Source of the DNA: a virus
Lineage: Duplodnaviria > Caudoviricetes
Virus record (IMG/VR): IMGVR_UViG_3300048089_000093
Location: 1 to 64,000 of that record
Length of the DNA: 64,000 bases
Reading direction: 5' to 3' (one strand)
Shown one piece after another: positions 68 to 479 of the stretch. The notes below the pieces were generated by a model. That model worked only from the letters and a program-made list of their open reading frames with translations, searched no databases and had not been told where the DNA came from. How positions within the stretch are numbered: the first letter of the stretch is position 1; the number at the start of each line of letters is the position of its first letter. Made by a program: the position numbers and the translations under genes.

Positions 68-325
68 ATGACCAAAGGCCGCCGCAAGCCCACCCGCGAA
101 CCCGTCCAGCTCGACATGTTCGGCGGCATGTCGCCGGCCGCCGCGCGCGAGCACCTCGTCGCGGCGGTGGACCGCAACGGCCAGTACGTCGACTGGGACC
201 GCGACACGGGCAAGCTCAACGTCTACGTCAGCGAGCGCGGCGCGGACGACGGTGAGGTGACGCTGGACGGTCACTTCACGAAGCAGGATCTGGTCGCACT
301 CATCACACTTTGGCCTGCGACATAA
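68..325 (+). CDS. hypothetical protein (85 aa)
   Basis: ATG at 68 with GAGG 6 nt upstream; phage-like codon usage; no recognisable family. Confidence 0.5.
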   Translation: MTKGRRKPTREPVQLDMFGGMSPAAAREHLVAAVDRNGQYVDWDRDTGKLNVYVSERGADDGEVTLDGHFTKQDLVALITLWPAT

Positions 326-339
326 GGCTGGTGTAGAAT
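310..339 (+). promoter_or_regulatory. sigma70-like promoter for the tRNA-like RNA
   Basis: TAGAAT at 334-339 preceded by GTG; weak -35 (TTGGCC, 310-315); about 10 nt upstream of the tRNA-like element. Confidence 0.45.
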
Positions 340-348
340 CGCCAGCGG

Positions 349-426
349 CCGGGTAATAGCTCAACGGTAGAGCCTCACGCGCAAGCAGCCGCCTGAAGGT
401 CGCGGGTTCGACTCCCGCAGCCCGGA
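349..426 (+). ncRNA. tRNA-like RNA with intact D and T arms but aberrant anticodon arm and acceptor stem
   Basis: D arm GCTC-AACGGTA-GAGC (359-373), T arm GCGGG-TTCGACT-CCCGC (402-418), AGGTC variable loop; acceptor CCGGGT/GCCCGG pairs only in shifted register; no 5-bp anticodon stem; 3' end ACAA, not NCCA. Confidence 0.7.
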
Positions 427-451
427 CAAACACCTCCCGCAAAGCCTCACC

Positions 452-479
452 AAAGCCGCCCTCGCGCGGCTTTCTTTTT
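452..479 (+). terminator. intrinsic terminator after tRNA-like RNA
   Basis: AAAGCCGC-cctcgc-GCGGCTTT followed by CTTTTT. Confidence 0.8.

Follow-up and report, generated by a model that had tools for sequence, protein, structure and literature searches.

YrlA and the tRNA-like domain of tmRNA are non-decoding imitators of the tRNA elbow or acceptor, and in this they resemble the element described here. In YrlA, which is permuted, the ends lie in the Ro-binding stem; tmRNA, for its part, combines an mRNA domain with a reduced D arm. An ARAGORN tmRNA search finds none, and no Rfam model of either RNA is matched. Mobile elements carry tRNA pseudogenes and fragments, and the integration of genetic elements often gives rise to non-canonical tRNA predictions (PMC9897764). 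Literature searches returned no description of anticodon-less tRNA-like RNAs in phages.

The window analysed here is the first 64 kb (64,000 nucleotides) of an IMG/VR virus record of 85,240 bp, and positions refer to the window unless another contig is named. This record is a circular permutation, in that a 98–99% identical sister contig (L006/L009) bridges its last base to its first with five extra bases, GGTCG (L006 2455–2461). A chain of small coupled ORFs crosses this artificial end (window position 1, genome position 85240). The genome has genes for ParA, a large terminase, a portal, and a head protease, and this combination of ParA with phage genes makes it a phage-plasmid. The large terminase is less than 33% identical to those of isolate phages, and ParA resembles those of plasmids of several orders. 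The whole phage genome contains no Pth, PTH2, RNA ligase, or CCA enzyme, and the absence of Phage_integrase and Resolvase domains from it indicates that it has no tyrosine integrase or serine recombinase. Just before parA, there are a perfect 12-bp inverted repeat AGCGTTCCGTGC/GCACGGAACGCT (872–907) and three GTATGTACAG-type repeats (924–977), which may constitute a centromere or an operator.

The element is located downstream of an 85-amino-acid ORF, which has no Pfam or PHROG match. The upstream genes, which are contiguous in L006, are small ORFs linked to one another by translational coupling; one is HU-like, and the last in the chain is the 85-amino-acid ORF. Relatives were identified by protein-anchored searches with ParA and the 85-amino-acid ORF, and the relatives found in this way lack the element. 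The comparison set comprises eight syntenic loci of five distinct sequence types from JGI and Logan assemblies, and homologues of the 85-amino-acid ORF are syntenic in the relatives and 66–80% identical. The order of the locus in relatives is an HU-like gene, small ORFs, the 85-amino-acid ORF, a terminator, a small ORF with a CPCGC motif, and parA. Alignment with these loci delimits a lineage-specific insertion (Table 1), which is composed of a 19-nt leader with a -10 box, a 78-nt tRNA-like body, and a 9-nt trailer. The insert is positioned between the stop codon of the 85-amino-acid ORF, at the end of the early operon, and the ancestral operon terminator, and both of its edges show CT microhomology. 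In the closest relative (L133), the sequence TAAGGCT runs directly into the conserved trailer and terminator in the MAFFT alignment.

The eight syntenic loci contain no tRNA-model matches at E ≤ 1, and three whole related records of 74–94 kb contain no tRNA over the threshold, with a best E of 0.34. A canonical tRNA at this spot in relatives, which the first-pass annotation had named as evidence against its proposal of a functional non-decoding RNA, is thus absent from both the loci and the records. The same spot is occupied by unrelated ORFs in two of the relatives, one of 69 amino acids (L139 3003–3212) and a pair of 103 and 54 amino acids (L140 609–1252). Because of these other inserted ORFs, the spot between the 85-amino-acid ORF and the terminator (window 326–435) is regarded as a cassette hot-spot. 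The element is lineage-specific and moron-like. A small ORF upstream of parA at 590–775 on the plus strand, present in all syntenic relatives, combines the conserved motif CPCGC with a hydrophobic tail and matches no family. In a relative identified through ParA, a structured stretch with a terminator is located about 100 nt upstream of parA (L010 3771–3894), and it has a weak rsmX-like match of 31 bits, where the threshold is 56.

Table 1. Positions of the features of the insertion locus and of the closed-arm cloverleaves found in other contigs
Feature	Position	Strand	Basis and remarks
85-aa ORF, last gene of translationally coupled early operon	68–325	+	ORF with RBS
Predicted sigma-70 promoter, TTGGCC-18-TAGAAT	310–339	+	Promoter scan
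Lineage-specific insertion, ~103–106 nt	~330–435	+	MAFFT alignment with eight syntenic loci
tRNA-like body	349–426	+	Cloverleaf is the minimum-free-energy fold; RF00005 match
Acceptor stem	349–355/419–425	+	Five Watson-Crick pairs, G·U pair (U354·G420), A355·A419 mismatch
Connector A356-U357-A358	356–358	+	Cloverleaf reading
D arm	~358/359–373	+	Loop AACGGUA; followed by C374
22-nt arm replacing the 17-nt anticodon arm	375–396	+	Sequence, fold
Variable loop AGGUC (DNA AGGTC)	397–401	+	Sequence
T arm GCGGG-TTCGACT-CCCGC	402–418	+	Loop UUCGACU
Discriminator A426	426	+	Followed by CAA, no encoded CCA
Intrinsic terminator	452–479	+	Terminator scan; homologous in insert-free relatives
Cloverleaf with closed 22-nt arm	L008 5062–5107		9 bp + tetraloop
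Cloverleaf with closed 22-nt arm	L043 1671–1716		9 bp + tetraloop
Cloverleaf with closed 22-nt arm	L088 2649–2694		9 bp + tetraloop
Cloverleaf with closed 23-nt arm	L003 3221–3267		Helix + tetraloop
Cloverleaf with closed 23-nt arm	L077 2022–2068		Helix + tetraloop

The tRNA-like body matches the Rfam family RF00005 with a score of 31.6 bits at 350–425, above the gathering score of 29. The match is above chance, with E = 0.012 when the whole window is searched against all families and E = 3.8e-6 when the genome is searched against RF00005 alone, and the alignment passes over 16 nt of the replacement arm. ARAGORN with default settings finds zero tRNAs in the whole phage genome. Once its threshold is lowered, it assigns to the tRNA-like body an 8-nt loop in which the anticodon has four bases ('agca'), and an alternative call of a Leu-CAA tRNA is obtained only by inventing a 5-nt intron. 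Scoring with tRNA models had been put forward as a check by the first-pass annotation, and its outcome is an Rfam score over the threshold together with the failure of default ARAGORN. The D arm, the 22-nt TCA...TGA arm, the AGGTC loop, and the T arm described there are all in place, and so is the lack of a CCA sequence after the discriminator.

The elbow of the tRNA-like body is canonical. The D and T arms carry the elbow nucleotides (357–373, 397–418), a reading of the sequence shows that all of the approximately 20 positions that are conserved in tRNAs and lie outside the anticodon loop are canonical, and the D and T stems have nine of nine pairs intact and of the Watson-Crick type. The acceptor is irregular in both of the registers in which it can be drawn, and neither provides a regular 7-bp stem with a 2-nt connector. 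In the ARAGORN register, there are six pairs, an A·A mismatch, and a 3-nt connector. In the Infernal register, the connector is a normal U8-A9, and the 3' acceptor strand is one base short. The extra A that had been ascribed to a shifted acceptor stem is therefore present in the ARAGORN register only, and is replaced by the shortened 3' strand in that of Infernal.

The replacement arm lacks the features of an anticodon arm: it has no 7-nt loop with U33 and purine 37 and no 5-bp stem. Its central 12 nt do not contain any U, because of which there is no U33 and no definable anticodon. The minimum-free-energy fold of the arm consists of 3 bp, a C·C mismatch, 3–4 bp, and a loop of 5–8 nt, with a free energy of -4.0 kcal/mol. 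Drawn as a 9-bp helix capped by a tetraloop, it pairs at six of the nine positions. The fold of the arm is thus ambiguous and weak, and the GC-GCAA-GC mini-hairpin reported previously is one of its possible folds but differs from the minimum-free-energy fold. Pattern scans of unrelated viral and bacterial (MAG) contigs identified closed-arm cloverleaves with full acceptor stems (Table 1), the arms of four of which (L008, L043, L088, and L003) have folding free energies of -8 to -13 kcal/mol. The exact 20-mer of the arm was found by a pattern scan of viral contigs in the sister contig L006 only. The 7-mer AGCCGCC of the arm (387–393) recurs in the 5' strand of the terminator stem (454–460), so that a 6-bp pairing between the arm and the 3' strand of the terminator is conceivable. 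By a rough estimate, this repeat may well be due to chance in GC-rich DNA.

With its irregular acceptor, its lack of an encoded CCA, and an arm that has neither U33 nor an anticodon loop, the element is a tRNA-shaped, tRNA-derived gene that almost certainly cannot decode. The first-pass annotation had described it as a non-decoding, tRNA-shaped gene, and the failure of default ARAGORN and the arm without U33 or an anticodon loop are in line with that description.

The predicted sigma-70 promoter combines sequences of different origin. Its TAGAAT -10 box (334–339) belongs to the insert, whereas the TTGGCC -35 box is contributed by the 3' end of the 85-amino-acid ORF and lies inside its conserved coding sequence. 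The combination of the two boxes at a spacing of 18 nt is the sole promoter-like match in positions 1–1100, where 0.3 are expected, and the -10 box noticed by the first-pass annotation is thus part of a plausible promoter. T310, with which the -35 box begins, occupies the third position of a CTT leucine codon, which is CTG in all five relative types; CTT makes up 3.3% of the leucine codons in the eight genes of the phage that were counted. This rare synonymous codon, which completes the -35 box, hints that expression was favoured after the insertion, an observation that is post hoc but real. An imperfect inverted repeat CTGGTG...CGCCAG at 328–345 brackets the -10 box, and may be an operator or due to chance.

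The strong terminator that had been assigned to the element is present. However, it is ancestral to the locus, common to the upstream operon, and not the element's own, because insert-free relatives have a homologous trailer and terminator at the same place. Since the terminator is shared with the operon, the transcription of the element, for which the promoter with its insert-borne -10 box is plausible, is perhaps only partly independent.

The exact element appears to be an orphan, confined to one phage species with two haplotypes. Scans of IMG/VR viral contigs with patterns of the D-to-T span, the 5' half, the 3' half, and the arm did not find it outside the sister contig L006, and scans of genome contigs (one genome per species) and of JGI metagenome contigs with the element pattern found none. 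The 3' half pattern is absent from the 401 Burkholderiales genomes searched, and three Burkholderiales genomes contain T-arm matches only. Searches with blastn produced partial matches, mostly to the T arm, in isolate phages and plasmids, and no match in E. coli genomes. The stretch is contained in 24 rhizosphere metagenome runs, none of which is RNA, and no haplotype other than the two known ones occurs in the four rhizosphere runs examined. The element does not differ between the two, and the block around it, from about -750 to 490, differs by two SNPs and one indel (0.2%). The next 1.1 kb, from position 491 just past the terminator, contains 21 SNPs (1.8%). This pattern looks like mosaic ancestry and not purifying selection on the RNA, and the identity of the element in both haplotypes is uninformative on selection because the block has low divergence. 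A hypervariable segment is replaced between the haplotypes about 0.8–1.2 kb upstream of the joint (genome 84034–84432).

Parts of the element are similar to ordinary tRNA genes. Its 5' 24 nt match without a difference the 5' half of tRNA-Gln(UUG) genes of canonical type that lie in unrelated, AT-rich contigs of viruses, and ordinary genes for tRNA-Val and tRNA-His share its D and T arms. Its 3' 26 nt are identical at 24 of 26 positions to an att-like tRNA 3' fragment (L166 1113–1138), which ends in ACCA, where the element has ACAA. The L166 fragment extends from the T loop to ACCA and is preceded by a hairpin, and ARAGORN sees no full tRNA there. These sequence likenesses hint that the element derives from a normal tRNA whose gene encoded the CCA; sequence scans found no donor tRNA gene for the element.

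We assign a probability of approximately 0.5 to the element being a captured and disabled tRNA gene, a presumably still-transcribed passenger. According to this explanation, a ~106-nt cassette derived from a tRNA gene entered the hot-spot between the stop codon of the early operon and its terminator, in this lineage only. Two sources of its transcription are probable, namely read-through of the operon and the hybrid promoter with its gene-borne -35 box and insert-borne -10 box. The transcript would fold into a tRNA shape with an intact D/T elbow, as indicated by the sequence and its fold, and RNase P and host 3' trimming enzymes may process it to a presumably stable product. The disabled gene would thus persist as a transcribed passenger.

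Capture and disablement are favoured by the insertion itself with its absence from relatives, the other cassettes that L139 and L140 carry there, the orphan status of the element in all scans, the failure of default ARAGORN, the arm without U, and the irregular acceptor. The difference in arm free energy, -4.0 compared with -8 to -13 kcal/mol in the sealed-arm cloverleaves, points in the same direction, as do the possible canonical ancestor type (the tRNA-Gln 5' half and the L166 3' end) and the lack of Pth, PTH2, RNA ligase, and CCA enzyme in the phage. Against it count the canonical elbow, with every visible defect in the two ends that are used for translation, the rare synonymous codon that made the -35 box, and the length of the arm, 22 nt as in the sealed-arm look-alikes of unrelated contigs. 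In addition, a single indel cannot explain the arm because no remnant of an anticodon loop is left. The argument of the first-pass annotation that random decay would not spare the elbow is weak, since two or three events could suffice and the low-divergence block is uninformative. Under the reading as a disabled captured tRNA, the element is one of the ordinary things that cassette traffic leaves behind at the boundary of a module, and mainly shows that an intact elbow alone is no proof of function.

Alternatively, the element could be a selected, moron-like, non-decoding tRNA mimic expressed from the plasmid-prophage, the elbow and acceptor of which occupy a tRNA-binding factor outside translation. 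We regard this as a tentative possibility. The candidate targets are a tRNase attacking the T loop or acceptor, from the host or a competitor, an acceptor-modifying toxin, RNase P, and a tRNA-modifying enzyme. A mimic is consistent with a perfect elbow and with defects limited to the anticodon arm, acceptor end, and CCA, with the promoter–gene–terminator layout at a cassette hot-spot, with the -35 box made by the synonymous CTT, and with an arm length equal to that of the sealed-arm cloverleaves L008, L043, and L088 in unrelated DNA. However, the element occurs in one species only, its arm is weak, mismatched, and not sealed, the phage has no partner gene, and the local lack of variation is accounted for by the low-divergence block. 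The cellular tRNA pool is very large, and any decoy would have to compete with it. It is unlikely that the anticodon-less, CCA-less tRNA body, made from its own promoter in the carrier state, blunts a weapon directed at the elbow, T loop, or acceptor, and thereby protects the host–plasmid pair. Possible weapons of this sort are tRNases of the contact-dependent or colicin type, or acceptor-modifying toxins from rhizosphere competitors or defence systems. Were the RNA under selection, it would be a single-copy, promoter-driven tRNA mimic on a phage-plasmid without a tRNA-related partner gene, which would extend the theme of non-decoding tRNA look-alikes to temperate plasmid-prophages with moron-like expression, in a compact cassette of ~170 bp that is easily tested.

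The position of the element in the 3' untranslated region, with no terminator between the 85-amino-acid gene and the element, also allows for an action in cis on the mRNA of the upstream operon. RNase P recognises a tRNA-like acceptor and T domain, features that the element has, and its cut could free the message from the terminator hairpin and so affect stability; alternatively, the fold could act as a 3' block to exonucleases. This is improbable, since a bare terminator suffices in relatives and a separate promoter would be superfluous. A recombination scar, in which an integrating element has left behind a hybrid or a tRNA fragment from an att site, would be in agreement with the frequent origin of non-canonical tRNA predictions from integration (PMC9897764) and with the L166 att-like 3' fragment, which has nearly the same 3' end. 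Nevertheless, both tRNA halves are present, the acceptor strands are complementary, and the phage genome has no tyrosine integrase or serine recombinase, which makes a scar very unlikely. The 8-nt loop with the four-base 'agca' anticodon drawn by ARAGORN at the lowered threshold would suit an unusual working tRNA, for example one whose expanded anticodon loop serves to read quadruplets or to act as a suppressor. The chance of this is slight, given the lack of U33 and of a purine-37 context, the C·C mismatch in the stem, the irregular acceptor, the missing CCA, and a score barely over the Rfam threshold.

The element also resembles the P1 C4 and P4 CI RNAs in being a small phage-plasmid RNA that could be matured by RNase P, and the first-pass annotation had suggested an immunity RNA of this kind. 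Its architecture differs from theirs, there is no Rfam C4 match at E ≤ 10, and no target complementarity exceeds chance, and a C4- or CI-type antisense RNA is thus unsupported. The longest perfect complement of the element elsewhere in the genome is 12 nt, with approximately the number expected by chance according to our estimate, and when the arm is paired with ribosome-binding regions, 10 of 40 shuffles equal or beat its best duplex.

The element is similar to canonical tRNA (RF00005) in its U8, A14, G18-G19, A21, G53, UUCGA T loop, and C61, as well as in its 5-nt variable loop and acceptor–T stacking, and differs from it in the 22-nt arm, the A·A mismatch, the one-base register fault of the acceptor, and the lack of CCA. 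With the tRNA pseudogenes and fragments of mobile elements (PMC9897764), it shares a low score, a location on a mobile element, and restriction to one lineage, whereas, unlike the fragments, it has both halves, an intact elbow, and a -10 box, and is not accompanied by an integrase. What appears to be new is the status of the tRNA-like element as a ~103–106-nt insertion, the ancestral nature of the terminator that follows it, and the absence of the element from relatives. The sealed-arm look-alikes, an informal class represented by L008, L043, and L088, also combine a tRNA body with a 22-nt arm that replaces the anticodon arm, but their helix of ~9 bp with a tetraloop is stable, whereas the arm of the element has -4.0 kcal/mol and six of nine pairs. 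The element fails the defining 'sealed' feature of this class, and is a weak orphan relative of the sealed-arm look-alikes.
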